Shown in pieces: positions 2,764 through 49,860 of a stretch of DNA of 64,000 nucleotides. The stretch's first letter is position 1; each line of letters opens with the position of its first letter. The position numbers were made by a program, and so were the translations under genes. The notes beneath the pieces are model-generated. The model worked only from the letters and a program-made list of their open reading frames with translations. It was not told where the DNA came from and did not search any database. The stretch is from Escherichia coli (GTDB lineage: Bacteria; Pseudomonadota; Gammaproteobacteria; Enterobacterales; Enterobacteriaceae). The DNA is taken from assembly GCF_024502345.1 (NCBI RefSeq), contig NZ_JALDNN010000001.1; one strand, written 5' to 3'.

Positions 2764-5565
2764 TTATTCGACGTTCAGCGCGTCATTAACCAGATCTTGT
2801 TGCTGTTTCTGGTGAACGGACATATACCCTACCGCCGGAGAGGCGGAGGCCGGGCGGCCTGCATAACGCAGAGAAGCCCCAAACGGAATCACTTCACGGA
2901 AATGATGCTGGCTGCAGTACCATGCGCCCTGGTTGAGCGGCTCTTCCTGGCACCAGACAAAATCCTTGACGTGAGCAAACTGCTGCAACACTTCCTGCAT
3001 CGCTTTATGCGGGAACGGGTAGAGTTGCTCGATACGCACAATGGCGACATCATGTTGATTGTTCTTACGACGCTGTTCCAGCAGGTCGTAATAAACCTTA
3101 CCAGAACACATCACTACGCGCTTCACGCCCTTCGGATCAAGCTCGTCGATTTCACCGATGGCTGGCAGGAAGGTGCCGTTCGCCAGTTCTTCGAGGCTGG
3201 AAACCGCCAGCGGATGACGCAGCAGGGATTTCGGCGACATCACTACCAGCGGACGACGCATCCCGCGCAGCGCCTGACGACGCAGCATGTGGTAAACCTG
3301 TGCCGGGGTAGACGGAACGCAAACCTGCATGTTTTGCTCAGCACAAAGTTGCAGATAACGTTCCAGACGCGCGGAGGAGTGCTCCGGCCCCTGCCCTTCG
3401 TAACCGTGCGGCAGCAACATCACCAGACCACACATCCGGCCCCATTTCTGTTCGCCAGAAGAGATGAACTGGTCGATAACCACCTGCGCACCGTTGGCGA
3501 AGTCACCGAACTGCGCTTCCCAGATGGTCAGAGTGCGTGGTTCTGCGGTGGCATAACCGTATTCAAACGCCAGCACTGCTTCTTCAGACAGTACGGAGTC
3601 CCAGACGCGGAACGCGCCCTGCCCGTTATGGATGTGTTGCAACGGCGTGTAAGTGGAACCGTTAGACTGGTTGTGGATCACCGCGTGGCGGTGGAAGAAG
3701 GTACCGCGACCGGAGTCTTCACCCGACAGGCGAACCGGAATGCCTTCGTCAACCAGCGTGGCGTAAGCGAGGTTTTCCGCACCGCCCCAGTCGAACAGTT
3801 TTTCACCGGCAGCCATCGCCTGGCGATCGCCATAAATCTTGGCAACGCGAGACTGCATTTCAACTGCTTCCGGCACCGTGCTGATGCGTTTCGCCAGCTC
3901 CTGCAGGCGCTTCATCTCAACTTTGTTCGGGTACTCTTCGTCCCATTCGTGGTTGAGGTACGGCGACCAGGTGAAAGAGTGCATGTTCATCGGACGCCAC
4001 TCTGCCACTACGCAATCGCCAGCATCCAGCGCATCGCGGTACAGGTTAACCATCTCGGTGGCATCTTCCAGCGTCGCCACTTTTTCCTGCTCCAGCTTGT
4101 CAGCGTAGATTTTGCGCGGTGTCGGATGTTTTTTGATTTTCTGATACATCAGCGGCTGGGTTGCGCTCGGCTCGTCGGCTTCGTTGTGGCCGTGACGGCG
4201 GTAGCACACCAGGTCGATGAAGACATCACGTTTAAAGGTGTTACGGAAATCGAGCGCCAGACGGGTCACAAAGGCAACGGCTTCCGGATCATCCGCGTTA
4301 ACGTGGAAAATCGGTGCCTGAACCATCTTACCGATATCAGTACAGTACGGTGTAGAACGAGCATCCAGCGGATTAGAGGTGGTGAAACCAACCTGGTTGT
4401 TGATAACGATACGTACCGTACCGCCAACTTCATAACCACGCGCTTTCGACATGTTCAGAGTTTCCTGAACCACGCCCTGCCCGGTCACTGCGGCGTCACC
4501 GTGGATGGTGATTGGCAGCACTTTGTTGCTGCTCGGCTCATCAAGTCTGTCCAGACGGGCACGAACAGAACCGATAACTACCGGGCTTACAATCTCAAGG
4601 TGAGACGGGTTAAACGCCAGCGCCAGGTGCACCAGGCCGCCATCGGTCTGGAAGTCAGACGAGAAGCCCATGTGGTATTTCACGTCACCCGTGCCGAGGT
4701 GTTCTTTATGTTTACCGGCAAACTCGTCGAACAAGTCTTGCGGTTTTTTACCCAGCACGTTCACCAGCACGTTCAGACGACCACGGTGCGCCATCCCAAG
4801 AACCACTTCGCGGGTGCCGCTGTTGCCAGCGTGGCGGATCATCTCTTTAAGCATCGGGATTAACGCGTCACCGCCTTCCAGCGAGAAGCGTTTTGCGCCA
4901 GGGAATTTTGCGCCGAGGTAACGTTCAAGGCCTTCAGCGGCGGTCAGTTCGCTTAAGAAGCGTTTTTTCTCTTCGCTATTGAAAGTCGCGCGACCAGACT
5001 CGATACGCTGTTGGATCCAGCGTTTTTCTTCGGTGCTGGTAATGTGCATATACTCGGCACCAATCGGGCCACAGTAGGTTTGCTTGAGTGCTTCCAGCAG
5101 CTCGCCGAGTTTCATGGTTTCTTTGCCGCTGGCAAATGAACCGACGTTGAAGGTTTCCTGGAAGTCTGCTTCGGTCAGATCGTGGAAAGACGGATCCAGA
5201 TCGGCCACTTTATCTTGCTGCCACAGTCCCAGCGGATCGAGATTCGCATGCTGGTGACCACGGAAGCGGTATGCGTTAATGAGCTGCAGGACTTTAACCT
5301 GCTTCACATTGGTGTCAGGGTCGGAGATCGTTGAAGAGTAACGTGAAGCGTCTTTCGCCAGGCGGCGGAAATATTCACGCGTTTGAGAGTGGAATTGATC
5401 CGGTTTGACTCCCGTACCAGGTAACTGCTGGAACGTCGAACGCCAGTTAGCGTCAACCGAGTCAGGATCGGTTAAGAAGTCTTCATAGAGCTGTTCTATC
5501 CAGCTCTGGTTTGCGCCAGAGAGGTAAGAAGAGTCCAACCAGGCTTTCAAAGCGCTGTTCTGCAT
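2764..5565 (-). CDS. sucA: 2-oxoglutarate dehydrogenase E1 component
   Basis: 933-aa [34 protein letters not shown]...; thiamine-diphosphate E1 family, length matches E. coli SucA. Confidence 0.97.
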
Positions 5566-5741
5566 CGTGATCCCTTAAGCATCTTTTTTATGCTTACTTC
5601 GCCGTGGATACTACCACGCACAGTGATGTGCGTGCCGGGGTTCACTTGCGAGCTCTTGTCTACGTAGTGGCTCGCGAAGGAACCTTTAAAAACTGTCTTA
5701 GTGTCAGGGGCAGTTTTTAAAGATTTCCTGCATTTCTTTGT

Positions 5742-5865
5742 TACGCCTGATGCGCTGCGCTTATCAGGCCTACGGGTAATGACTTGTAGGCCGGATAAGG
5801 CGTTCACGCCGCATCCGGCACTGGTTGCCTGATGCGACGCTTGCGCGTCTTATCAGGCCTACGGT
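5742..5865. repeat. REP/BIME cluster in sucA-sdhB intergenic region
   Basis: Multiple REP palindromes (GCCTGATGCGCTGCGCTTATCAGGCCTAC, GCCGGATAAGGCGTTCACGCCGCATCCGGC) read directly. Confidence 0.75.
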
Positions 5866-6582
5866 TTACGCATTACGTTGCAACAACATCGACTTGATAT
5901 GGCCGATGGCGCGCGTCGGGTTCAGCCCCTTCGGACATACACTGACGCAGTTCATGATGCTGTGACAGCGGAATACGCTGAATGCATCGCTCAAACCGTC
6001 GAGGCGGCTGTCAGTCTCGGTATCACGGCTATCGATCAGGAAACGATATGCCGCTAACAAGCCTGCCGGGCCGATAAACTTATCGGGATTCCACCAGAAA
6101 GACGGACAAGAGGTTGAACAACATGCGCAGAGAATACATTCATACAGCCCGTCGAGTTTTTCGCGCTGCTCTGGCATCTGTAAATGCTCGCGAGCTGGCG
6201 GATTTTGTCCATTATTCAACAGGTAAGGCTTAATTTTCTCATATTGCGCATAGAATTGTCCCATGTCTACCACCAAATCGCGGATCACCGGTAAACCTGG
6301 CAGCGGGCGAATCACAATCTTCTTGCCCGGCTGGTTGAGTGCCGAAATCGGGGTAATACAGGCCAGACCATTCTTGCCGTTCATGTTCAGACCGTCGGAA
6401 CCGCACACACCTTCACGACAGGAGCGGCGGAACGACAGGCTGGGATCTTTCTCTTTCAGCTGGATAAGCGCATCCAGCAGCATCATGTCGCGACCTTCTT
6501 CCGCTTCCAGGGTGTAATCCTGCATACGCGGAGCATCATCAACATCCGGGTTATAGCGATAAATTGAAAACTCGAGTCTCAT
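5866..6582 (-). CDS. sdhB: succinate dehydrogenase iron-sulfur subunit
   Basis: 238-aa ORF MRLEFSIYRYNPDVDDAPRMQDYTLEA... with Cys clusters for 2Fe-2S/4Fe-4S/3Fe-4S centres. Confidence 0.97.
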   Translation of the reverse strand: MRLEFSIYRYNPDVDDAPRMQDYTLEAEEGRDMMLLDALIQLKEKDPSLSFRRSCREGVCGSDGLNMNGKNGLACITPISALNQPGKKIVIRPLPGLPVIRDLVVDMGQFYAQYEKIKPYLLNNGQNPPAREHLQMPEQREKLDGLYECILCACCSTSCPSFWWNPDKFIGPAGLLAAYRFLIDSRDTETDSRLDGLSDAFSVFRCHSIMNCVSVCPKGLNPTRAIGHIKSMLLQRNA

Positions 6583-6597
6583 TTTCCTGTCTCCGCA

Positions 6598-8364
6598 TTA
6601 GTAAGTACGAATCTTCGGCGGGAATGCCGGGCGCAGTTTCGGTTCCATGTTGACGCTTCGGCGCGTCATGGATTCCGACTCTGGCAGATACAGGGAGTGG
6701 CACAGCCAGTTTTCATCATCACGATCCGGGAAGTCGAAGCGGCTATGTGCGCCACGGCTTTCGGTACGGAAGTTGGCAGAAACAGCCGTTGCATACGCCG
6801 TTTCCATCAGGTTATCCAGTTCCAGGCACTCAACGCGCTGGGTGTTGAACTCGCTGGAAGTGTCATCCAGACGGGCATTTTTCAGACGCTCGCGGATAAC
6901 TTTCAACTGCTCAAGCCCTTTCGCCATCGCATCACCTTCACGGAAGACCGAGAAGTTATGCTGCATACATTCTTGCAGCGCTTTACGAATCGCCACCGGA
7001 TCTTCACCGTTACGATTATTGTTCCAGCGGTTCAGACGATCCAGAGATGCTTCAACATCAGACTCGCTGGCATCGCGCAATGCGCCCTGTTCGGCGATAG
7101 ACTCTTGCAGATGCAGACCTGCCGCACGACCAAAGACCACCAGGTCCAGCAGCGAGTTGCCGCCCAGACGGTTAGCGCCGTGTACCGATACACAAGCGAT
7201 TTCACCAACGGCAAACAGCCCCGGAACAACCACATCTTCGCCTTTCTCGTTCACCGTCAGCGCCTGACCGGTCACTTTGGTCGGAATACCGCCCATCATG
7301 TAGTGACAGGTTGGGATAACCGGAATCGGCTCTTTCACCGGATCGACGTGAGCGAAGGTACGGGAAAGCTCCAGGATACCCGGCAGACGGGATTCGAGAA
7401 CTTCTTTACCCAGGTGATCGAGTTTCAGTTTCGCGTGTGGCCCCCACGGACCATCACAGCCGCGACCTTCACGGATTTCAATCATGATGGAACGCGCCAC
7501 CACATCACGGCCCGCCAGGTCTTTGGCGTTCGGCGCATAACGCTCCATAAAGCGTTCGCCATGTTTGTTCAGCAGATAACCGCCTTCACCACGGCAACCT
7601 TCGGTGACCAGTACGCCCGCACCGGCAATGCCGGTCGGGTGGAATTGCCACATTTCCATATCCTGCACCGGTACGCCTGCGCGGATAGCCATGCCGACAC
7701 CGTCGCCAGTGTTAATGTGGGCGTTAGTGGTGGACTGATAAATACGCCCTGCCCCGCCAGTCGCCAGCACGGTAGCGCGGGCTTTGAAATAAACCACTTC
7801 ACCGGTTTCGATGCACAGTGCGGTACAACCCACCACCGCGCCATCCTGGTTTTTCACCAGATCCAGCGCATACCACTCGGAGAAAATGGTGGTGTGGTTT
7901 TTCAGGTTCTGCTGATAAAGCGTGTGCAACAGTGCGTGACCGGTACGGTCAGCCGCCGCCGCAGTGCGTGCCGCCTGCTCGCCGCCGAAGTTTTTCGACT
8001 GACCGCCAAACGGACGTTGATAGATACGACCATCATCAAGACGCGAGAACGGCAGGCCCATGTGTTCGAGTTCCAGAATCGCTTCCGGCCCGGTTTTACA
8101 CATATATTCAATCGCGTCCTGGTCACCGATATAGTCCGACCCTTTTACGGTGTCGTACATATGCCATTCCCAGTTATCTTCATGGGTATTACCCAGCGCA
8201 ACGGTAATGCCGCCTTGCGCAGAAACGGTATGGGAACGGGTCGGGAAGACTTTAGAGAGCAGCGCACAGGTCTGGCCGCTCTGGGAAATTTGCAGCGCCG
8301 CGCGCATACCTGCGCCACCGGCACCAATCACAACTGCATCAAATTCTCTGACTGGCAATTTCAT
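6598..8364 (-). CDS. sdhA: succinate dehydrogenase flavoprotein subunit
   Basis: ORF-track 592 aa trimmed to the [24 protein letters not shown] start (588 aa); FAD-binding GxGxxG motif; start overlaps sdhD stop. Confidence 0.95.
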
Positions 8365-9802: not shown

Positions 9803-11086
9803 ATGGCTGATACAAAAGCAAAACTCACCCTCAACGGGGACACAGCTGTTGAACTGGATGTGCTGAAAGGCACGCTGGGTCAAGATGTTATTGATATCCG
9901 TACTCTCGGTTCAAAAGGTGTGTTCACCTTTGACCCTGGCTTCACTTCAACCGCATCCTGCGAATCTAAAATTACTTTTATTGATGGTGATGAAGGTATT
10001 TTGCTGCACCGCGGTTTCCCGATCGATCAGCTGGCGACCGATTCTAACTACCTGGAAGTTTGTTACATCCTGCTGAATGGTGAAAAACCGACTCAGGAAC
10101 AGTATGACGAATTTAAAACTACGGTGACCCGTCATACCATGATCCACGAGCAGATTACCCGTCTGTTCCACGCTTTCCGTCGCGACTCACATCCAATGGC
10201 AGTCATGTGTGGTATTACCGGCGCGCTGGCGGCGTTCTATCACGACTCGCTGGATGTTAACAATCCTCGTCATCGTGAAATTGCCGCGTTCCGCCTGCTG
10301 TCGAAAATGCCGACCATGGCAGCGATGTGTTACAAGTATTCCATTGGTCAGCCATTTGTTTATCCGCGCAACGATCTCTCCTATGCCGGTAACTTCCTGA
10401 ATATGATGTTCTCCACGCCGTGCGAACCGTATGAAGTTAATCCGATTCTGGAACGTGCTATGGACCGTATTCTGATCCTGCACGCTGACCATGAACAGAA
10501 CGCCTCTACCTCCACCGTGCGTACCGCTGGCTCTTCGGGTGCGAACCCGTTTGCCTGTATCGCAGCAGGTATTGCTTCACTGTGGGGACCTGCGCACGGG
10601 GGTGCTAACGAAGCGGCGCTGAAAATGCTGGAAGAAATTAGCTCCGTTAAACACATTCCGGAATTTGTTCGTCGTGCGAAAGATAAAAATGATTCTTTCC
10701 GCCTGATGGGCTTCGGTCACCGCGTGTACAATAATTACGACCCGCGCGCCACCGTAATGCGTGAAACTTGCCATGAAGTTCTGAAAGAGCTGGGCACCAA
10801 AGATGACCTGCTGGAAGTGGCTATGGAGCTGGAAAACATCGCGCTGAACGACCCGTACTTTATCGAGAAGAAACTGTACCCGAACGTCGATTTCTACTCT
10901 GGTATCATCCTGAAAGCGATGGGTATTCCGTCTTCCATGTTCACTGTCATTTTCGCAATGGCACGTACCGTTGGCTGGATCGCCCACTGGAGCGAAATGC
11001 ACAGTGACGGTATGAAGATTGCCCGTCCGCGTCAGCTGTATACAGGATATGAAAAACGCGACTTTAAAAGCGATATCAAGCGTTAA
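9803..11086 (+). CDS. gltA: citrate synthase (type II)
   Basis: 427-aa [39 protein letters not shown]...; RBS AAGGAG upstream. Confidence 0.97.
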
Positions 11087-11114
11087 TGGTTGATTGCTAA
11101 GTTGTAAATATTTT

Positions 11115-11146
11115 AACCCGCCGTTCAAATGGCGGGTTAATTTTTA
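11115..11146 (+). terminator. rho-independent terminator after gltA
   Basis: Hairpin AACCCGCCGTTCAAATGGCGGGTT followed by AATTTTTAT. Confidence 0.8.
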
Positions 11147-11476
11147 TATGCCTAAACACAAAAAATTGTAAAAATAAAATCCACTATCGGACATTCATAT
11201 ATTCTAAAAAAAAATATATCGGTATAAATTATAAACAAATCGATGATTTTTAATCATGTATCTTCCTCTCAGTTACATGAATAAACCACCAAATATAGCG
11301 CCCCCCTATAATTTCCAATACTTTATTCATCAAACATTTAATTCATACCATCAATTAATTACTTTTACATTTAATAAAATTAATAATATTTTTAAGAAAA
11401 ACTAAAAACATTCGACAATCAAATAAGATATTCTTGCACCGATATACTTTTTTCTTTTCTGTTAAAGGACTCCGTT

Positions 11477-12043
11477 ATGTTTAAAGGACAAAAAACATTG
11501 GCCGCACTGGCCGTATCTCTGTTGTTCACTGCACCTGTTTATGCGGCTGATGAAGGATGCGGTGCAATTCATTTTAAAGGTGAGGTTATTGAAGCGCCTT
11601 GTGAAATACATCAGGATGATATTGATAAAGAAGTTGAACTTGGTCAGGTGACCACCAGCCACATTAATCAGTCACATCACAGCGATGCCGTTGCTGTCGA
11701 CCTGCGCTTAGTCAACTGTGATCTGGAAAACTCCAGCAACGGTTCCGGTGGCAAGATTTCTAAAGTTGCAGTCACCTTTGATAGCTCAGCGAAAACCACC
11801 GGCGCAGATCCGATTCTCAACAACACCAGCACGGGTGAAGCCACCGGCGTCGGCGTGCGTTTATTGAATAAAGATCAAACCAATATCGTTTTAGGCACTG
11901 CTGCTCCAGACATCGACCTGGCACCGACCTCCAGCGAACAAATGCTGAATTTCTTTGCCTGGATGGAACAAATTGATCAGGCTACACCTGTAACGCCAGG
12001 CGCAGTTACAGCGAATGCTACCTACGTGCTGGATTATAAATAA
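11477..12043 (+). CDS. ybgD: fimbrial major subunit-like protein (cryptic chaperone-usher fimbriae)
   Basis: 188-aa ORF with signal peptide MFKGQKTLAALAVSLLFTAPVYAA and fimbrial subunit-like C-terminus; preceded by a very AT-rich region. Confidence 0.9.
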   Translation: MFKGQKTLAALAVSLLFTAPVYAADEGCGAIHFKGEVIEAPCEIHQDDIDKEVELGQVTTSHINQSHHSDAVAVDLRLVNCDLENSSNGSGGKISKVAVTFDSSAKTTGADPILNNTSTGEATGVGVRLLNKDQTNIVLGTAAPDIDLAPTSSEQMLNFFAWMEQIDQATPVTPGAVTANATYVLDYK

Positions 12044-12051
12044 GTATTACT

Positions 12052-14553
12052 TTGGCGGCGCTATCGCCGCCTTTCTTCAAATATTTATCAGGTATGGACA
12101 CCGTGAATATTTATCGACTCTCTTTTGTATCCTGCCTGGTTATCGCGATGCCTTGCGCATTGGCGGTCGAATTCAACCTTAATGTTCTCGATAAATCAAT
12201 GCGCGACCGCATTGATATTTCATTATTAAAGGAAAAAGGAGTCATTGCTCCCGGTGAGTATTTTGTTAGCGTTGCGGTAAATAATAACCAAATCAGTAAC
12301 GGGCAAAAGATTAACTGGCACAAAAATGACGATAAAACCATTCCGTGCATCAATGATTTACTGGTCGATAAATTTGGCTTAAAACCTGAAGTCCGTCAGT
12401 CGTTACCATTGATAAATCAGTGCGTCGATTTTAGCTCCCGACCTGAAATGCTCTTCAATTTCGATCAAGCCAATCAGCAACTGAATATTAGTATTCCGCA
12501 AGCCTGGCTGGCGTGGCACTCAGAAAACTGGACCCCACCGTCCACATGGAAAGAAGGTGTCGCCGGTGTCCTGATGGATTACAACTTGTTTGCCAGCAGC
12601 TACCGCCCACAGGATGGCAGCAGCAGCACTAATCTTAACGCCTATGGAACAGCCGGAATCAACACGGGGGCATGGCGCTTACGCAGTGATTATCAGTTGA
12701 ATCAGACTGATAGCGATGATAACCATGAACAGTCAGGCGAAATATCACGTACCTATCTTTTTCGCCCGTTACCGCAATTAGGTTCAAAATTAACCCTCGG
12801 CGAAACGGATTTTAGTTCCAATATTTTCGACGGTTTTTCTTATACCGGCGCGGCACTGGCAAGTGACGATCGAATGTTGCCATGGGAACTACGCGGCTAC
12901 GCCCTACAAATTAGCGGTATTGCACAGACCAATGCCACGGTGACGATCAGTCAATCAGGCCGCGTCATTTACCAGAAAAAAGTCCCACCAGGCCCATTTA
13001 TCATTGACGACCTTAATCAGTCTGTTCAGGGCACACTGGATGTCAAAGTGACGGAAGAAGATGGTCGGGTGAACAATTTCCAGGTTTCGGCAGCATCGAC
13101 GTCCTTCCTGACTCGTCAGGGACAGGTTCGCTATAAACTGGCCGCGGGTCAGCCACGGCCCTCCATGTCACATCAAACTGAAAATGAAACCTTTTTTAGC
13201 AATGAAGTTTCCTGGGGGATGCTGTCAAACACCTCGCTGTACGGCGGCCTGCTGCTTTCTGGTGATGACTACCATTCTGCCGCAATGGGTATTGGGCAAA
13301 ATATGCTGTGGCTTGGTGCGCTGTCGTTTGATGTCGCGTGGGCCAGTAGCCATTTTGATACTCAGCAGGACGAGCGGGGCTTAAGCTACCGTTTTAATTA
13401 CAGCAAACAAGTGGATGCCACTAACAGCACGATTTCCCTCGCCGCTTATCGTTTCTCCGATCGTCATTTTCACAGCTACGCCAACTATCTGGATCACAAA
13501 TACAACGACAGCGATGCGCAGGACGAAAAACAGACGATCAGCTTATCCGTGGGCCAACCGATTACCCCACTAAACCTCAATCTTTACGCCAACCTGTTGC
13601 ATCAAACCTGGTGGAATGCAGACGCCTCCACGACCGCCAACATCACAGCAGGTTTTAATGTTGATATTGGTGACTGGAGAGATATCTCTATTTCGACGTC
13701 ATTCAATACAACCCATTACGAAGATAAAGATCGCGACAACCAGATTTACCTGTCGATTTCGCTCCCCTTCGGTAATGGTGGTCGGGTTGGTTATGACATG
13801 CAAAACAGTAGCCACAGCACCACACACCGCATGTCGTGGAACGATACACTGGATGAACGTAATAGCTGGGGCATGTCTGCCGGACTGCAATCCGACCGTC
13901 CTGACAATGGAGCCCAGGTGAGCGGTAACTATCAGCACCTGAGTTCAGCGGGTGAGTGGGATATTTCTGGTACCTATGCCGCCAATGATTACAGTTCCGT
14001 CAGCAGCAACTGGAGCGGTTCTTTCACCGCAACCCAATATGGTGCAGCGTTTCATCGCCGCAGCTCCACCAATGAACCACGCCTGATGGTCAGTACCGAT
14101 GGCGTGGCAGATATTCCGGTTCAGGGCAATCTCGACTACACCAACCATTTTGGCATTGCGGTGGTGCCGTTGATTTCCAGTTACCAGCCTTCCACCGTGG
14201 CGGTGAACATGAATGGCTTACCCGACGGCGTAACAGTTGCAGAAAACGTTATCAAAGAAACGTGGATTGAAGGCGCGATAGGTTACAAATCACTGGCTTC
14301 CCGTTCCGGTAAAGACGTTAACGTCATCATTCGCAACGCCAGCGGTCAGTTCCCTCCCCTCGGAGCGGATATCCGCCAGGATGACAGCGGCATTAGCGTG
14401 GGGATGGTTGGCGAGGAAGGACATGCCTGGTTAAGCGGAGTCGCTGAAAATCAAAAGTTTACCGTGGTCTGGGGTGATAGCCAGCATTGCTCGCTCCATC
14501 TTCCTGAACATATGGAAGACACCGAAAATCGCCTGATTTTACCTTGTCATTAA
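12052..14553 (+). CDS. ybgQ: fimbrial outer-membrane usher protein
   Basis: 833-aa ORF (true start may be the internal ATG near 12094, MDTVNIYRLSFVSCLVIAMPCALA signal peptide); PapC/FimD-like usher size and organisation. Confidence 0.9.
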   Translation: MAALSPPFFKYLSGMDTVNIYRLSFVSCLVIAMPCALAVEFNLNVLDKSMRDRIDISLLKEKGVIAPGEYFVSVAVNNNQISNGQKINWHKNDDKTIPCINDLLVDKFGLKPEVRQSLPLINQCVDFSSRPEMLFNFDQANQQLNISIPQAWLAWHSENWTPPSTWKEGVAGVLMDYNLFASSYRPQDGSSSTNLNAYGTAGINTGAWRLRSDYQLNQTDSDDNHEQSGEISRTYLFRPLPQLGSKLTLGETDFSSNIFDGFSYTGAALASDDRMLPWELRGYALQISGIAQTNATVTISQSGRVIYQKKVPPGPFIIDDLNQSVQGTLDVKVTEEDGRVNNFQVSAASTSFLTRQGQVRYKLAAGQPRPSMSHQTENETFFSNEVSWGMLSNTSLYGGLLLSGDDYHSAAMGIGQNMLWLGALSFDVAWASSHFDTQQDERGLSYRFNYSKQVDATNSTISLAAYRFSDRHFHSYANYLDHKYNDSDAQDEKQTISLSVGQPITPLNLNLYANLLHQTWWNADASTTANITAGFNVDIGDWRDISISTSFNTTHYEDKDRDNQIYLSISLPFGNGGRVGYDMQNSSHSTTHRMSWNDTLDERNSWGMSAGLQSDRPDNGAQVSGNYQHLSSAGEWDISGTYAANDYSSVSSNWSGSFTATQYGAAFHRRSSTNEPRLMVSTDGVADIPVQGNLDYTNHFGIAVVPLISSYQPSTVAVNMNGLPDGVTVAENVIKETWIEGAIGYKSLASRSGKDVNVIIRNASGQFPPLGADIRQDDSGISVGMVGEEGHAWLSGVAENQKFTVVWGDSQHCSLHLPEHMEDTENRLILPCH

Positions 14554-14567
14554 TTAAGGAAATGAAA

Positions 14568-15299
14568 ATGACATTTATGAAAGGACTACCCCTTTTGTTG
14601 TTGGTTGCCAGTCTGTGCAGCCACGCTGCACTACAACCCGATCGCACTCGTATTGTGTTTAACGCTAATGATAAAGCTACCAGTCTGCGCGTGGATAATC
14701 GTAGCGATAAACTCCCCTACCTCGCTTATTCCTGGCTCGAAAATGAAAAAGGGGAGAAAAGCGATGATCTTCTGGTCGCCCTGCCACCGATACAACGTCT
14801 GGAACCGAAAGCAACAACGCAGGTACGGATAGTAAAGCAAGCCTCGACCACAAAATTACCGGGCGATCGCGAAACGCTATTTTTCTACAATATGCGTGAA
14901 ATTCCTCCCGCCCCGGAAAAAAACAGCGACCATGCCGTTCTGCAAGTCGCCATTCAGAGTCGTATCAAGGTGTTCTGGCGACCGGCTGCATTACGCAAGA
15001 AAGCAGGAGAAAAGGTCGAACTGCAGTTACAGGTCAGCCAGCAGGGCAACCAACTGACACTGAAAAATCCTACCGCGTATTATCTGACCATTGCCTACCT
15101 GGGACGAAATGAAAAAGGCGTTCTCCCCGGCTTCAAAACCGTGATGGTTGCGCCTTTTAGTACGGTCAACACAAACACCGGAAATTATAGCGGCAGCCAG
15201 TTTTATCTCGGTTATATGGATGATTACGGCGCGTTACGCATGACGACACTCAACTGCAGCGGACAATGCCGTTTACAAGCCGTGGAGGCGAAGAAATGA
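14568..15299 (+). CDS. ybgP: fimbrial periplasmic chaperone (PapD-like)
   Basis: ORF-track 14544..15299; preferred start [20 protein letters not shown] with AGGA 8 nt upstream; PapD-like chaperone length. Confidence 0.88.
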
Positions 15300-16357
15300 G
15301 TGCTGGCAAGGGAGTGTTGCTCGTCATCTGTCTGTTATTTCTGCCGTTGAAGTCTGCGCTTGCCCTGAACTGCTACTTTGGTTCATCCGGTGGTTCGGTA
15401 GAAAAATCAGAAGTGATTCAACCTTTTGCTGTACCAGGCAATGCCAAACCCGGCGATAAGATTTGGGAATCTGACGATATTAAAATTCCCGTCTATTGTG
15501 ACAACAATACCAACGGCAATTTTGAAAGTGAGCATGTTTACGACTGGGTAAACCCCTACCCGGGGGTGCAAGATCGCTATTATCAACTCGGCGTAACTTA
15601 CAATGGCGTTGATTATGACGCCAACCAGGGAAAAAGCCGCATCGACACTAACCAGTGTATCGACAGTAAGAACATTGACATTTATACCCCTGAGCAGATT
15701 ATCGCGATGGGATGGCAGAACAAAATTTGCTCGGGTGATCCCGCTAATATTCACATGTCGCGTACCTTTCTCGCTCGCATGCGGTTATACGTCAAAATAC
15801 GAGAAATGCCGCCGCATGATTATCAAAGTACGCTTAGCGACTATATCGTCGTGCAATTTGACGGTGCCGGTAGCGTTAACGAAGATCCTACTGCCCAAAA
15901 CCTGAAATATCATATTACCGGTCTGGAAAACATTCGCGTGCTGGATTGCAGCGTCAATTTTTCCATTTCACCGGAAACACAGGTGATTGATTTTGGTAAA
16001 TTTAATTTGCTGGATATTCGTCGCCACACAATGTCGAAAACATTCAGTATTAAGACGACAAAATCACAAAATGACCAATGCACCGACGGATTTAAAGTCA
16101 GTTCCTCCTTTTATACCGAAGAAACGTTGGTTGAAGAAGATAAAGCATTGTTGATTGGTAATGGTCTGAAGCTACGTTTGCTGGATGAAAACGCCTCGCC
16201 TTATACATTCAATAAATATACTGAATACGCCGATTTCACCAGCGATATGCTGATCTACGAAAAAACCTATACGGCTGAACTTTCGTCCATTGCAGGCACC
16301 CCCATCGAGGCTGGCCCCTTCGATACAGTGGTGCTTTTTAAGATTAACTATAACTGA
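15296..16357 (+). CDS. ybgO: fimbrial adhesin-like protein
   Basis: ORF-track 15266..16357; start trimmed to [23 protein letters not shown] (353 aa) overlapping the ybgP stop; terminal gene of the fimbrial operon. Confidence 0.85.
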
Positions 16358-16508
16358 CTTGCCATGATGCCCTTTGCAGCCGGAAAGGGCATCTCTTTCA
16401 GAAAATTGCTGATTTTCCCCTTTTCCTTGATTGCTGTTATTTTTTCCTGGCCCGGCTTTCTTTATGCTGTATCGATACACCAAAGAGAAAATAATGAGGG
16501 AGCAAAGG

Positions 16509-17555
16509 ATGCCAGTTTTGCAGTGGGGAATGTTATGTGTGCTATCACTTCTCCTTTCTATTGGTTTCCTCGCGGTACATCTCCCGGCGGCATTATTACT
16601 TGGGCCGATGATCGCCGGGATCATCTTTAGTATGCGCGGGGTTACCCTGCAACTCCCCCGCTCCGCTTTTCTCGCCGCGCAGGCCATTCTTGGCTGCATG
16701 ATTGCGCAAAACTTGACCGGTTCGATCCTGACCACGCTGGCGGTTAACTGGCCGATTGTGTTAGCTATTTTACTGGTGACGTTGCTTTCCAGCGCTATCG
16801 TGGGATGGCTACTGGTGCGCTATAGCTCACTGCCCGGAAATACTGGTGCCTGGGGCTCCTCGCCTGGCGGGGCGGCGGCAATGGTCGCGATGGCGCAGGA
16901 TTACGGCGCAGATATCCGCCTGGTGGCGTTTATGCAGTATCTGCGAGTGCTGTTTGTCGCGGGGGCCGCAGTTCTGGTCACGCGAATGATGCTGGGCGAT
17001 AACGCTGAAGCGGTTAACCAGCATATCGTCTGGTTCCCGCCAGTGAGCATTAATCTCCTGCTTACTATTTTGCTCGCGGTCGTTGCCGGTACAGTGGGAT
17101 GCCTGCTGCGTCTTCCTTCCGGCACGATGCTCATCCCGATGCTGGCGGGCGCAGTGCTCCAGTCTGGTCAGCTCATCACCATCGAACTACCGGAATGGCT
17201 GCTGGCGATGGCGTATATGGCAATTGGCTGGCGGATTGGTCTTGGTTTCGATAAACAAATCTTACAGCGGGCACTACGCCCGCTACCACAAATCCTGCTG
17301 TCGATTTTTGCTCTGCTGGCTATTTGTGCGGGTATGGCGTGGGGACTGACCCGGTTTATGCACATTGATTTTATGACTGCCTACCTCGCCACCAGCCCCG
17401 GCGGGCTTGATACCGTGGCGGTCATCGCCGCAGGGAGCAATGCCGATATGGCGCTCATTATGGCGATGCAAACCCTGCGCCTGTTCAGTATTTTGCTGAC
17501 AGGGCCTGCCATTGCGCGGTTTATTTCAACCTATGCGCCGAAACGTACGGCCTAG
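16509..17555 (+). CDS. abrB: AbrB-family membrane protein (putative regulator of aidB expression)
   Basis: ORF-track 374 aa trimmed to [30 protein letters not shown] (348 aa); polytopic membrane protein. Confidence 0.88.
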
Positions 17556-23214: not shown

Positions 23215-23340
23215 CGATGCCTGATGCGACGCTTGACGCGTCTTATCAGGCCTACGCATTTCCTGCAATTTATTGAATTTGCACAAATTTGTAGGCTGGA
23301 TAAGGCGTTCACGCCGCATCCGGCATCTGGGCTCGATTGC
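23215..23340. repeat. REP/BIME cluster between dtpD and phr
   Basis: REP palindromes GCCTGATGCGACGCTTGACGCGTCTTATCAGGCCTAC and GCCGGATGCGGCGTGAACGCCTTATCC (inverted) read directly. Confidence 0.75.
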
Positions 23341-23352
23341 CTGACGCGTCTG

Positions 23353-24771
23353 TTATTTCCCCTTCCGCGCCGCCTCATACGCTGCCAACGTTTGTACTCT
23401 CGCCTCTTTGTGCTCGACTATCGGTTGCGGATAATCCAGCTTCACACCTGCTTTCTCAGCCCACTTCCACGGCTCATGCACCGATTTCCCCGGTACATTG
23501 CGTAGTTCCGGTAGCCACTGGCGGATAAACTCGCCTTCGCGGTCAAATTTCTCGCCCTGGGTTGTCGGGTTGAAAATACGAAAATACGGCGCTGCATCAG
23601 TACCCGTAGAAGCCGCCCACTGCCAGCCACCGTTATTGGCTGCCAAATCACCATCAATCAGCTGCGACATGAAATATCGCTCGCCTTCGCGCCAGTCGAT
23701 CAATAAATCTTTCACCAGAAAACTGGCTGTAATCATCCGTAGCCTGTTATGCATCCAGCCAGTGCTGTTAAGCTGACGCATGGCAGCATCGACAATCGGG
23801 TATCCCGTTTTGCCTTCCTGCCAGGCCTGTAAATGTGCGGGATTGCTCTGCCACTGTACACGATCCGTCCAGGCAATAAATGGACGATGTTTACACAACG
23901 AGGGGTGATACGTTATCAGGTGACGGTAAAACTCGCGCCAGATCAGCTCATTAAGCCAGACACTACCGGCCCCACCGTCCAGCGCCTGCGGCTGTTCAGC
24001 CAACAAGCGATGCAAGCACTGGCGAGGCGATAACCCGCCCGTTGCCAGGCTGGCCGACAAACGGCTGGTGCCTTCCACTGCCGGAAAATCTCGTTGTTGC
24101 TCATATTCTCCGGCACCGTTCTGGCAAAACTGGCGTAATTGCGCAATCGCCGCTTTTTCTTCCACCGGAAAATGCGCAGTATCGAAAGACTGACGAGGAT
24201 AATTCAGCGTAATGGATGGCGAGGGCTCTATCGATCCGCTACTACGAACTTTTGGCGCAGCGACGCACTCCGGCATCCCTTCCCGCAGCCGTTTCAGCCA
24301 GGCATTCTTAAAAGGCGTAAAGACTTTGTACATCTCGTGATTACCGGTCATCACCGCGCCAGGCGGCAGGATCACGCTGTCATCAAATCCTTCACACACC
24401 ACGTTACGCAGCGCTCTTTCAACTTCCACATCCCGCGCCCGCTCATTCACCTCATACTGATAGTTATAAAAAAGATGAGTAACGCTGTTTTCCGCGCACA
24501 CCTGTTTAATTATTTCGACGCTGGCGGCAAAGTCATCCACTTCACGGAACAATAAAGGAATACCTTTTTCCGCAAGCGCGATTTGTAGCCCATTCAGTTG
24601 AGCATTGATAAGTTCAGCCTGACGCGGCGACATGTTATGCGTCGCCCACTGGCGTGGTGTAGCGATATATAACGCCAGCACGCGTGCAGACGAATTGCGG
24701 CAGGCGGCAGCCAGTGCGAGATTATCGTGCAGACGTAAATCCTGGCGAAACCAGACCAGATGAGTAGTCAT
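23353..24771 (-). CDS. phrB: deoxyribodipyrimidine photolyase
   Basis: 472-aa ORF MTTHLVWFRQDLRLHDNLALAAAC...; photolyase/cryptochrome family; ATG overlaps ybgA stop (ATGA). Confidence 0.96.
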   Translation of the reverse strand: MTTHLVWFRQDLRLHDNLALAAACRNSSARVLALYIATPRQWATHNMSPRQAELINAQLNGLQIALAEKGIPLLFREVDDFAASVEIIKQVCAENSVTHLFYNYQYEVNERARDVEVERALRNVVCEGFDDSVILPPGAVMTGNHEMYKVFTPFKNAWLKRLREGMPECVAAPKVRSSGSIEPSPSITLNYPRQSFDTAHFPVEEKAAIAQLRQFCQNGAGEYEQQRDFPAVEGTSRLSASLATGGLSPRQCLHRLLAEQPQALDGGAGSVWLNELIWREFYRHLITYHPSLCKHRPFIAWTDRVQWQSNPAHLQAWQEGKTGYPIVDAAMRQLNSTGWMHNRLRMITASFLVKDLLIDWREGERYFMSQLIDGDLAANNGGWQWAASTGTDAAPYFRIFNPTTQGEKFDREGEFIRQWLPELRNVPGKSVHEPWKWAEKAGVKLDYPQPIVEHKEARVQTLAAYEAARKGK

Positions 24772-25277: not shown

Positions 25278-25319
25278 TACTGCTCCTGAACGGTTTACAG
25301 GAGTAAGTGTAGACGGCGA

Positions 25320-41094: not shown

Positions 41095-41275
41095 ATGTTT
41101 CTTGCCGGATGCGGCGTGAACGCCTTATCCGGCCTACAAAAGCACGCAAACTCAATATATTGCAGAGATCATGTAGGCCTGATAAGCGTAGCGCATCAGG
41201 CAATTTAGCGTTTGAAACTGTTTGTCTGTTCCTTGCCGGATGCGACGTAAACGCCCCATCCGGCATAGCGAAACG
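41095..41275. repeat. REP/BIME cluster between chiP upstream region and glnS 3' end
   Basis: Three or more REP palindromes (GCCGGATGCGGCGTGAACGCCTTATCCGGCCTAC, GCCTGATAAGCGTAGCGCATCAGGC, GCCGGATGCGACGTAAACGCCCCATCCGGC). Confidence 0.75.
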
Positions 41276-49489: not shown

Positions 49490-49615
49490 TTGGCTCTGAT
49501 GACAAACGCCAAACTGCCTGATGCGCTACGCTTATCAGGCCTACGCAGCTCCTGCAATATATTGAATTTTCATGCTTTTGTAGGCCGGATAAGGCGTTCA
49601 CGCCGCATCCGGCAT
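49490..49615. repeat. REP/BIME cluster between nagD and asnB
   Basis: GCCTGATGCGCTACGCTTATCAGGCCTAC and GCCGGATAAGGCGTTCACGCCGCATCCGGC palindromes. Confidence 0.75.
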
Positions 49616-49860
49616 GAACAAATCGCACTTTATCAGCAATTTGGCCCCCGTAAAATATAACCATTCAATAAAACCCGCTAAAAATTATCGATTCATCAAT
49701 AAATACATCCTCACACCAGACCCTTTTTCACCAATCGACAATCACCATTACGTTTTTTATTTTTTCACCGCCAAATCGCTTGCGCACAGTGCTGCTTTGC
49801 GGCATTTTTTTAAACAAGCAAACACAACAAGCAACAAATACCAGGTTAACGGAGAAGGTT

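Follow-up and report, generated by a model that had tools for sequence, protein, structure and literature searches.

The ybgDQPO locus of Escherichia coli: a pi-clade chaperone-usher fimbrial operon behind an AT-rich spacer beside gltA

Results

Genes and features of the locus

The analysed DNA, here called the window, is a stretch of 64,000 nucleotides from Escherichia coli, and all positions refer to it. Positions 11147-16357 hold the E. coli operon ybgDQPO, an ordinary and already catalogued chaperone-usher fimbrial operon of four genes. The genes lie at 11477-16357 on the plus strand and are all intact in the list of open reading frames. Their starts follow the RefSeq style and were transferred via a genome with 98.7% identity. 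The original prediction had named the locus as this operon, and gene content, domains and homologues bear out the identity. The following features were assigned:

11113..11146, plus strand: intrinsic terminator of gltA, a 12-bp stem followed by a T-run (terminator scan; stem at 11113-11140)
11147..11476, plus strand: AT-rich putative regulatory region upstream of ybgD, ~24-26% GC (composition, A/T tracts, K-12 counterpart)
11364..11392, plus strand: candidate sigma-70 promoter, TTTACA, 17 nt, TATTTT (promoter scan, consensus match only)
11477..12043, plus strand: ybgD, major pilin subunit, 188 aa (Pfam Fimbrial, 1.2e-29; PDB matches FimA and PapA)
12054..12071, plus strand: GC hairpin with the arms GGCGGCG and CGCCGCC around the loop CTAT, then TTTCTTC (top-ranked terminator-like site in the scan)
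12094..14553, plus strand: ybgQ, outer-membrane usher of the pi clade, 819 aa (Pfam PapC_N, Usher and PapC_C; PapC 515 bits)
14568..15299, plus strand: ybgP, PapD-like periplasmic chaperone, 243 aa (Pfam PapD_N and PapD_C; PapD 173 bits)
15296..16357, plus strand: ybgO, two-domain tip adhesin, 353 aa (C-terminal Fimbrial match below the Pfam cut-off)
16366..16393, plus strand: hairpin 3' of the ybgO stop, 10-bp stem and weak U-tract (fold -20.6 kcal/mol, z -2.8)

The last hairpin is probably the 3' end of the operon transcript. It was not called by the consensus terminator scan and is kept in the deletion allele, too. The gltA terminator (fold -20.8 kcal/mol, z -4.4) has a stem that is maintained by compensatory changes in other alleles. 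The start given in the original prediction, 11147, is located just past this terminator, which delimits the ybg regulatory spacer on its 5' side.

Domains and assembly residues of the gene products

YbgD begins with a Sec signal peptide and an N-terminal donor strand; a Cys42-Cys81 pair and a C-terminal strand with YVLDYK follow. Judged by its incomplete Ig fold, the donor strand and the conserved C-terminal strand, it is a pilin subunit. The N-terminal GSGEIHFKGEVIEAPC and the C-terminal TYVLDYK, for which roles as donor strand and in the pilin are predicted, are invariant across alleles; in the same comparison, the assembly surfaces were invariant and the loops variable. YbgD of the window carries an extra Cys (S28C) within the donor-strand region. 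YbgQ aligns to PapC over its full length and has the domains of an usher, namely, PapC_N (4e-34), Usher (1.7e-184) and PapC_C (6e-13). In YbgP, the conserved residues R28 and K134 align to Arg8 and Lys112 of the chaperone PapD, and the C-terminal Cys pair is retained.

YbgO consists of a signal peptide (1-23), a receptor-binding domain (24-217) and a pilin domain (218-353), the layout of a two-domain adhesin. A pilin-fold C-terminal domain, whose absence would have spoken against the original prediction, is thus present together with an N-terminal receptor-binding domain. Experimental structures of the latter with ~98% identity are deposited in the PDB (9RX0/9RWW), and the receptor domain of an E. 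coli YbgO paralogue (P0107, 37% identity) was solved separately (9RWU). A literature search for a publication on 9RX0, 9RWW, 9RWU or 9RWE found none, and these four entries were also missing from the Foldseek results against a PDB copy (to April 2026). Publications have already described the operon and its membership of the pi clade, its cryptic state and its occupancy by H-NS in K-12, and the adhesin fold is in the PDB.

Clade and gene order

The Pfam domain architectures of the four open reading frames give the order subunit, usher, chaperone, adhesin. This is the order described in the original prediction; its further claim that the order is atypical in comparison with pap does not hold since the usher gene papC precedes the chaperone gene papD. 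The pap cluster is arranged as papIBAHCDJKEFG, with the usher PapC before the chaperone PapD (PMC11316696), and ybgDQPO has been entered as a pi-type operon (PMC3032704 Table 5). The gene order of ybgDQPO is the norm of the pi clade and is shared with pap. The pi-clade arrangement of major subunit, usher and chaperone is found in ybgDQPO and likewise in the homologous loci L010 (Enterobacter), L012 (Salmonella), L014 and L015.

The usher scored 515 bits with PapC and 265 with FimD, the chaperone 173 bits with PapD and 103 with FimC. The best NCBIfam usher models for YbgQ were StdB, PRK15284 and PRK15273, and YbgQ was assigned to the pi-clade ushers by these scores and the published listing. 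Over all models, those of the Salmonella Std/Ste/Stf ushers and chaperones were best (StdB with 634 bits, SteC with 188 bits, and StfD), which relates YbgQ and YbgP to these systems. As the scores are far under the equivalog cut-offs, ybg is a fimbrial type distinct from Std/Ste/Stf/Yqi, at another chromosomal site.

P pili resemble the system in their pi-clade membership, in the position of the usher before the chaperone, in the conserved chaperone residues Arg8/Lys112 and C-terminal disulfide and in the two-domain tip adhesin; PapC and PapD are the best PDB matches of the ybg usher and chaperone. Type 1 fimbriae (fimAICDFGH) share the assembly pathway and the pilin fold, and FimA gives the best PDB sequence matches of YbgD. 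They differ, however, in belonging to the gamma-1 clade with the order subunit-chaperone-usher, in having the invertible switch fimS with FimB/E as well as the adaptors FimF/G, and in that the ybg usher and chaperone reach half the score with FimD and FimC that they reach with PapC and PapD.

The K-12 operon (b0719-b0716) is alike in its gltA-to-abrB location, its four genes, their order and domain content, the AT-rich spacer, the stem of the post-ybgD hairpin and the conserved C-terminus of ybgO. The window nevertheless carries another allele. Identity to K-12 is 74% for ybgD (78% on amino acid level), 89% for ybgP, 94% for ybgQ and ybgO and 72.5% for the spacer, whereas the flanks of the locus are 98-99.7% identical.

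The AT-rich spacer and H-NS

The spacer between gltA and ybgD (390 bp) has a GC content of 26%. The marked AT-richness upstream of ybgD claimed in the original prediction was confirmed and is extreme within the window, by GC as well as by A/T tract counts: positions 11150-11470 have 24.3% GC compared to 52.1% over 64 kb and are the lowest-GC stretch there. Only 45 of 63,680 sliding 321-bp segments were equally low, every one of them at the ybg locus, and the next lowest region, the sdhC-gltA spacer, has 31.8%. A/T tracts of at least four bases occur 14 times per 390 bp in the spacer (window mean 3.6). The spacer also contains three near-matches to the H-NS motif TCGATAAATT. It thus has the AT-rich, A-tract-rich regulatory DNA well below genome GC that is typical of H-NS-silenced loci. 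Its AT-richness is kept in all alleles (26-33% GC) though identity drops to 57-76%.

The K-12 counterpart is listed as a 413-bp promoter island to which H-NS bound in each of three ChIP-chip studies (PMC3661553 Table 1), and chaperone-usher operons of K-12 have been described as cryptic and repressed by H-NS (PMC3559732). Region 11147..11476 is therefore probably an H-NS nucleation and silencing site that contains the ybgD promoter or promoters, as far as its composition can tell. Silencing by H-NS is documented for the K-12 allele; for the allele of the window, whose spacer is 72.5% identical, it is plausible from composition.

The candidate promoter at 11364..11392 overlaps a TAATATT block that is conserved in six of six aligned alleles. 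In a simple and crude scan over 10900-16700, six promoter-like sites were counted and 9 ± 3.5 in shuffled sequences, hence no excess. An excess of promoter-like sites as in a promoter island was thus unsupported for the window allele. The idea that the spacer hides a regulator gene or a small ORF was rejected as well, as only spurious AT-rich ORFs of at most 49 aa were present. A search for known RNA families gave nothing except one sub-threshold P9 match over the gltA terminator.

A hairpin behind ybgD

The hairpin at 12054..12071 lies directly 3' of the ybgD stop (fold z -3.2). It is found in all E. coli alleles with an invariant stem and a variable loop, and a GC hairpin of other sequence occupies the same position in the four homologous loci named above. 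Its U-tract (TTTCTTC) is weak. By analogy, the hairpin is probably a partial terminator or an mRNA-stabilising stem that raises the ratio of pilin to usher and sets subunit stoichiometry. If it ends or stabilises most transcripts at this point, the cell would produce more pilin than usher, chaperone and adhesin.

Phase variation

Phase variation is common among fimbrial operons. Expression of ybg could be phase-variable, instead of simply silenced by H-NS, by means of a switch in the spacer DNA that works by Pap-like methylation or by fim-like inversion. A 16-nt inverted repeat (11208-11223 / 11438-11453, 94% complementary) brackets 214 bp upstream of ybgD and would suit such a switch, but it is absent from the K-12, ATCC 8739, LB19b and O157 alleles, and inverted repeats of this kind are expected by chance in DNA of 25% GC. 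Each genome listed had one matching place on one strand, and no genome in the whole search had more than 2, in a megablast comparison that may miss a short AT-rich inverted piece. GATC does not occur anywhere in 10982-11719 and therefore a Dam/Lrp switch is absent; the operon has no papI/papB-like gene and no recombinase gene. We consider a switch in the spacer highly improbable.

Both particular forms were rejected. For a Pap-type methylation switch, the whole spacer lacks GATC and the operon lacks a PapI/PapB-like regulator. For a fimS-like invertible element, the repeat occurs in the window allele only and not in the four others compared, no recombinase gene is nearby, and the repeat is probably a chance match. 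Simple silencing by H-NS remains the preferred reading.

Origin of the locus

Horizontal acquisition, as proposed in the original prediction, can at most be ancient. A recent event agrees poorly with the fixed position at gltA, the modest codon shift and the borders: neither an integrase, a transposase nor a tRNA/att site was found between gltA and abrB, and no flanking direct repeats. The proposed check of GC and codon usage had a mixed outcome, with an extreme spacer and mildly low coding GC, but a codon-usage distance that is no outlier. The coding GC of the operon is 47.9% compared to 52.1% for the window. GC3 is 0.44 for ybgD, 0.53 for ybgQ, 0.52 for ybgP and 0.485 for ybgO (window median 0.586, sd 0.06). 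Strong codon-usage foreignness was rejected, as Karlin B is 0.28-0.41 and inside the range of neighbouring genes.

The operon might still be a recently acquired genomic island or xenogeneic DNA, with the AT-rich edge and the supposedly unusual order as marks of foreign origin. In K-12, the locus is marked as foreign or as an island by GIST, Nakamura and Lawrence (PMC3661553 Table 1), coding GC is lowered with ybgD having the lowest GC3 among real genes, and allelic divergence is far above that of the flanks. Furthermore, the closest homologues outside Escherichia (~60% identity; Enterobacter and Salmonella) share the four-gene layout of subunit, usher, chaperone and adhesin and are located elsewhere, between zupT or dsbB and ribB. 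In K-12 gene order, ribB presumably lies near the yqi locus (ygiL-yqiGHI). Against an island stand the features of the borders and codon usage given above and a gene order that is usual for the pi clade. In addition, ybg lies beside gltA in 4191 of 5426 complete E. coli genomes (77%) as well as in Escherichia sp. E2593 and an enterobacterial MAG, and Ybg was described as core-associated (Wurpel 2013). With an insertion position that is fixed across Escherichia, the locus does not behave as a mobile genomic island. An island origin is unlikely and recent acquisition of ybgDQPO weakly supported; the locus is better read as an old resident.

Alleles, selection and loss

The alleles of the locus are deeply diverged with dS of 1.3-2.0, compared to 0.02-0.07 in gltA and flanking genes. 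Such values are at or beyond the divergence between E. coli and Salmonella. The extreme divergence stays within the stretch from the gltA terminator to the ybgO-abrB spacer. In every allele comparison, dN/dS was 0.05-0.15 even with saturated dS, as under purifying selection, and replacements are concentrated in exposed loops of the pilin YbgD. The allele class of the window (at least 95% identity) comprises about 1,950 complete genomes. Tentatively, we put forward the possibility of a balanced polymorphism of long standing, with at least three allelic lineages coexisting at one chromosomal site of E. coli.

Loss is frequent. The gene ybgQ is absent from 1235 of 5426 genomes (23%), and only a 3' stump of ybgO is left in about 600. 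In the nearest genome, IS1 sits within the spacer and ybgQ contains a stop; another strain has ybgQ interrupted by IS4, and S. flexneri 2457T carries ybgO as a pseudogene (PMC6854044). The absences, the IS1/IS4 insertions and the internal stop argue that many lineages can do without the system. Together with the silence of the operon in laboratory conditions, they would also fit a decaying relic, for which cryptic means non-functional and which is kept only by inertia. Yet all four open reading frames of the window are intact, dN/dS stays low between alleles even at saturated dS, and the assembly-critical residues and strands are invariant. Moreover, STEC isolates of the HUS group had raised levels of ybg transcripts (log2 fold change 1.6-2.3; PMC6033998), and forced expression of ybg led to adherence to bladder cells according to Korea 2010, as cited in PMC6033998. 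A relic is therefore quite improbable, and ybgDQPO is regarded as a system under purifying selection.

Discussion

Proposed working of the system

Transcription would begin within the 390-bp spacer downstream of the gltA terminator. In laboratory conditions, H-NS would coat and silence this spacer, as was shown for the K-12 allele and is suggested here by composition. The hairpin behind ybgD would probably terminate or stabilise most transcripts and lead to a pilin excess, by analogy with papA. Control would operate without a Pap-type Dam/Lrp switch and without a conserved fim-type invertible switch.

Following the Pap and Fim paradigm, all four Ybg products would be exported by Sec, and the chaperone YbgP would cap each subunit via donor-strand complementation. 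The usher YbgQ would recruit the two-domain adhesin YbgO first and then polymerise YbgD by donor-strand exchange, so that a YbgD fibre with YbgO at its tip would result. The locus would be an old resident beside gltA that E. coli either keeps under purifying selection, as several very divergent alleles, or loses by deletion or IS insertion. The account as a whole, namely, a pi-clade ybgDQPO operon with Pap/Fim-type assembly, an H-NS-silenced spacer, a hairpin behind ybgD and long residence at gltA, is held with high confidence.

Significance

The analysis presents ybgDQPO as an old, core-associated resident and not as a fresh island, and corrects the claim of an atypical gene order. Should the balanced polymorphism be true, Ybg fimbriae would be expressed and 'seen' in nature, by way of immunity, phage or receptor diversity, and selection would act on H-NS silencing at the level of composition rather than on specific operator sites. 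The allele structure and the hairpin behind the pilin gene bear on whether bacteria in the wild use 'cryptic' fimbriae, and also on how silenced operons keep their regulation despite sequence turnover.

Organisation of the ybg operon

ybgDQPO is an annotated and already known system. Its four ORFs are intact in the window, with RefSeq-style gene limits transferred from a 98.7% identical genome. ORFs and Pfam matches agree with the coordinates and gene order of the original prediction; overall, its observation was confirmed and its interpretation is partly supported.

Features of the ybg region
9803-11086, gltA
11113-11140, strong intrinsic terminator of gltA, directly followed by the AT-rich spacer
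11477-12043, + strand, ybgD, pilin (Pfam Fimbrial)
12054-12071, GC hairpin followed by TTTCTTC, after the ybgD stop
12094-14553, + strand, ybgQ, usher (Pfam PapC_N, Usher and PapC_C)
14568-15299, + strand, ybgP, chaperone (Pfam PapD_N and PapD_C)
15296-16357, + strand, ybgO, tip adhesin (weak C-terminal match to Pfam Fimbrial)
16366-16393, second hairpin, putative operon end
16509-17555, abrB

The window covers the E. coli chromosome from sucD through asnB and further on, and runs opposite to the K-12 orientation. It is collinear with strain Br_190 (~98-99% identity); E. coli O18ac:H14 873.10 and FDAARGOS_943/944 are its nearest genomes. The rhsC-ybfB-ybfC-IS1-ybfD block of Br_190, located between ybgA and ybfA, is missing at ~25315-25325. 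Many E. coli carry an Rhs element at this site; its absence here leaves ybg as the main accessory-like cluster of the window. The window also lacks speFL-speF-potE at 33658-33791, a 4.2-kb segment for an inducible ornithine decarboxylase and a putrescine antiporter. There, kdpE is directly followed by REP-like sequence and pgm, a junction that only 353 of the 5426 complete genomes of E. coli share. The short indels relative to Br_190 are all palindromic elements of the REP/BIME type within intergenic spacers.

REP/BIME indels relative to Br_190
1305-1502, sucB-sucC spacer
5730-5866, sucA-sdhB spacer
23251-23360, dtpD-phrB spacer
41135-41208, chiP-glnS spacer
49491-49651, nagD-asnB spacer

AT-rich spacer and regulation

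The AT-rich tract upstream of ybgD is real. With 24.3% GC, 11150-11470 is the minimum among all 321-bp stretches of the 64-kb window; the entire gltA-ybgD spacer (11087-11476) has 26.2%, followed by the sdhC-gltA spacer as second-lowest region with 31.8%. The gltA-ybgD spacer contains 14 A/T tracts of at least 4 nt (mean 3.6 per 390 bp) and three near-matches (≤2 mismatches) to the high-affinity H-NS motif. The compositional anomaly expected for the operon extended only mildly into coding DNA, with 47.9% GC against 52.1% for the window and GC3 values of 0.44 (ybgD), 0.53 (ybgQ), 0.52 (ybgP) and 0.485 (ybgO) against a window median of 0.586 (sd 0.06), and the codon-usage distance was unremarkable.

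The K-12 counterpart of this spacer belongs to a set of 78 'promoter islands'; H-NS occupied it in all three ChIP-chip data sets, and several methods based on composition flag it as foreign DNA (PMC3661553, Table 1). The chaperone-usher operons of K-12 have been described as cryptic and under H-NS repression (PMC3559732). The spacer of the window is only 72.5% identical to that of K-12, and its GC content stays at 26-33% in every allele and orthologue examined. This retained AT-richness fits composition-driven H-NS silencing. Phase switches of the Pap or fim type are not supported, since 10982-11719 contains no GATC, the sole notable inverted repeat near ybgD is not conserved among alleles and no regulator or recombinase gene lies within the operon.

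Family, gene order and assembly

YbgQ resembled PapC (515 bits) more than FimD (265 bits), and YbgP resembled PapD (173 bits) more than FimC (103 bits). Matches to the top NCBIfam models, the StdB, SteC and StfD types of Salmonella, all stayed far under the equivalog cut-offs. Archer et al. place ybgDQPO among the pi-type clusters (PMC3032704). The gene order had been called atypical, which holds only in comparison with fim. Given the pap cluster papIBAHCDJKEFG with PapC as usher and PapD as chaperone (PMC11316696), subunit-usher-chaperone is the order of pap and the pi clade; it recurs in all the homologous loci, also of four genes, from Enterobacter, Salmonella, a different Escherichia clade and a MAG.

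YbgP retains the equivalents of PapD Arg8 and Lys112 and the C-terminal Cys pair. Across alleles, YbgD varies in its loops and conserves the donor-strand segment at its N-terminus, the Cys42-Cys81 pair and the strand at its C-terminus. The AF2 model of YbgO has two domains (pLDDT 88). Its top Foldseek matches were the full-length tip adhesins CupB6, FimH, LpfD, CsuE, PapG and CfaE, and the C-domain resembles pilins, so that the predicted C-terminal pilin fold is present. By inference from Pap and Fim pili, donor-strand complementation and exchange would assemble the subunits in the standard manner and yield a YbgD fibre with a YbgO tip and no adaptor or terminator subunits.

PDB 9RX0 and 9RWW are the YbgO receptor-binding domain itself (residues 24-217/222; three substitutions), and 9RWU/9RWV that of P0107, an E. 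coli paralogue sharing 37% identity with YbgO. Together with 9RWE they form a recent deposition series of receptor-binding domains that includes a third relative; our literature search found no paper on these entries, and the Foldseek PDB copy (April 2026) lacks them. Compared with FDAARGOS_943, YbgD of the window has the private substitutions S28C (11558-11560) and T157M. S28C creates a third Cys inside the N-terminal donor-strand region, where all seven other sequences compared read GSGE/GSGA; this may reflect an error in sequencing or a genuine variant with an effect on polymerisation.

Alleles, loss and divergence

Of 5426 complete E. coli genomes, 4191 carry ybgQ, which falls into discrete identity classes.

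Identity of ybgQ to the window
≥95%, 1950 genomes, the window's own class
90-95%, 1829 genomes, including K-12 (94.2%)
~78%, 412 genomes, including O157:H7

About 600 genomes carry a deletion allele with only a 3' ybgO stump. In ECO20 (L007, 7873-8545), positions corresponding to ~11215 and ~15955 of the window are joined, so that the spacer meets the start of the pilin domain. ybgD, ybgQ, ybgP and the YbgO receptor domain are lost; the last 396 bp of ybgO (pilin domain) and the abrB upstream region are kept. In K-12, genomic SELEX placed a peak for sigma-28, sigma-24 and sigma-32 in the ybgO 3' end, directed toward abrB (PMC5493296), so the stump may be kept for the abrB promoters it carries. 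In FDAARGOS_943 (L002), the closest relative, IS1 is inserted in the AT-rich gltA-ybgD spacer (3325-4022) and ybgQ (4784-7243) has an internal stop; in strain ST865 (H34), ybgQ is interrupted by IS4. These are examples of ongoing inactivation at the locus.

Divergence is sharply bounded by near-identical flanks. Compared with O157, the flanks are 98-100% identical, and the stretch from the gltA stop to the ybgO-abrB spacer only 57-83%. Compared with K-12, there are two hot spots, namely the spacer with ybgD (66-84%) and the ybgQ 3' end with the 5' half of ybgP (78-88%). A recombination patch in abrB (16600-16900) is 89-92% identical to K-12 and Br_190 and 98-100% to O157, the opposite of the neighbouring ybg genes. 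Between alleles, dS reaches 1.3-2.0 in ybg compared to 0.02-0.07 in gltA. dN/dS nevertheless stays at 0.05-0.15, so wherever they are present the genes are being maintained and are not in decay.

In the window (within 11087-11150) and alleles L006, L008 and L009, the stem of the gltA terminator varies by allele through compensatory changes, with the pairs TTAACCCGCC/GGCGGGTTAA, GGACCCGCC/GAGCGGGTTC and AGCCCGCC/GGCGGGCT. As the stem differs between alleles, the replacement tract begins at or just past the gltA stop codon. The hairpin after ybgD has an invariant stem and a variable loop in all E. coli alleles, and distant homologues have a hairpin of other sequence at the equivalent post-pilin position. 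Its proposed role, by analogy to papA, is partial termination or stabilisation, which would set an excess of pilin. The hairpin at 16366-16393 probably ends the operon.

Origin of the locus

A recent acquisition seems unlikely. Orthologues adjoin gltA in Escherichia sp. E2593 and one enterobacterial MAG. The homologues of Enterobacter and Salmonella (~60% identity) lie near ribB, and Wurpel et al. classified Ybg as 'core-associated' yet often disrupted. Taken together, these points speak for long residence, with alleles replaced and the locus lost repeatedly, and against a recent island. Only two points, the structure of the alleles and the conserved post-ybgD hairpin, might be worth following up.
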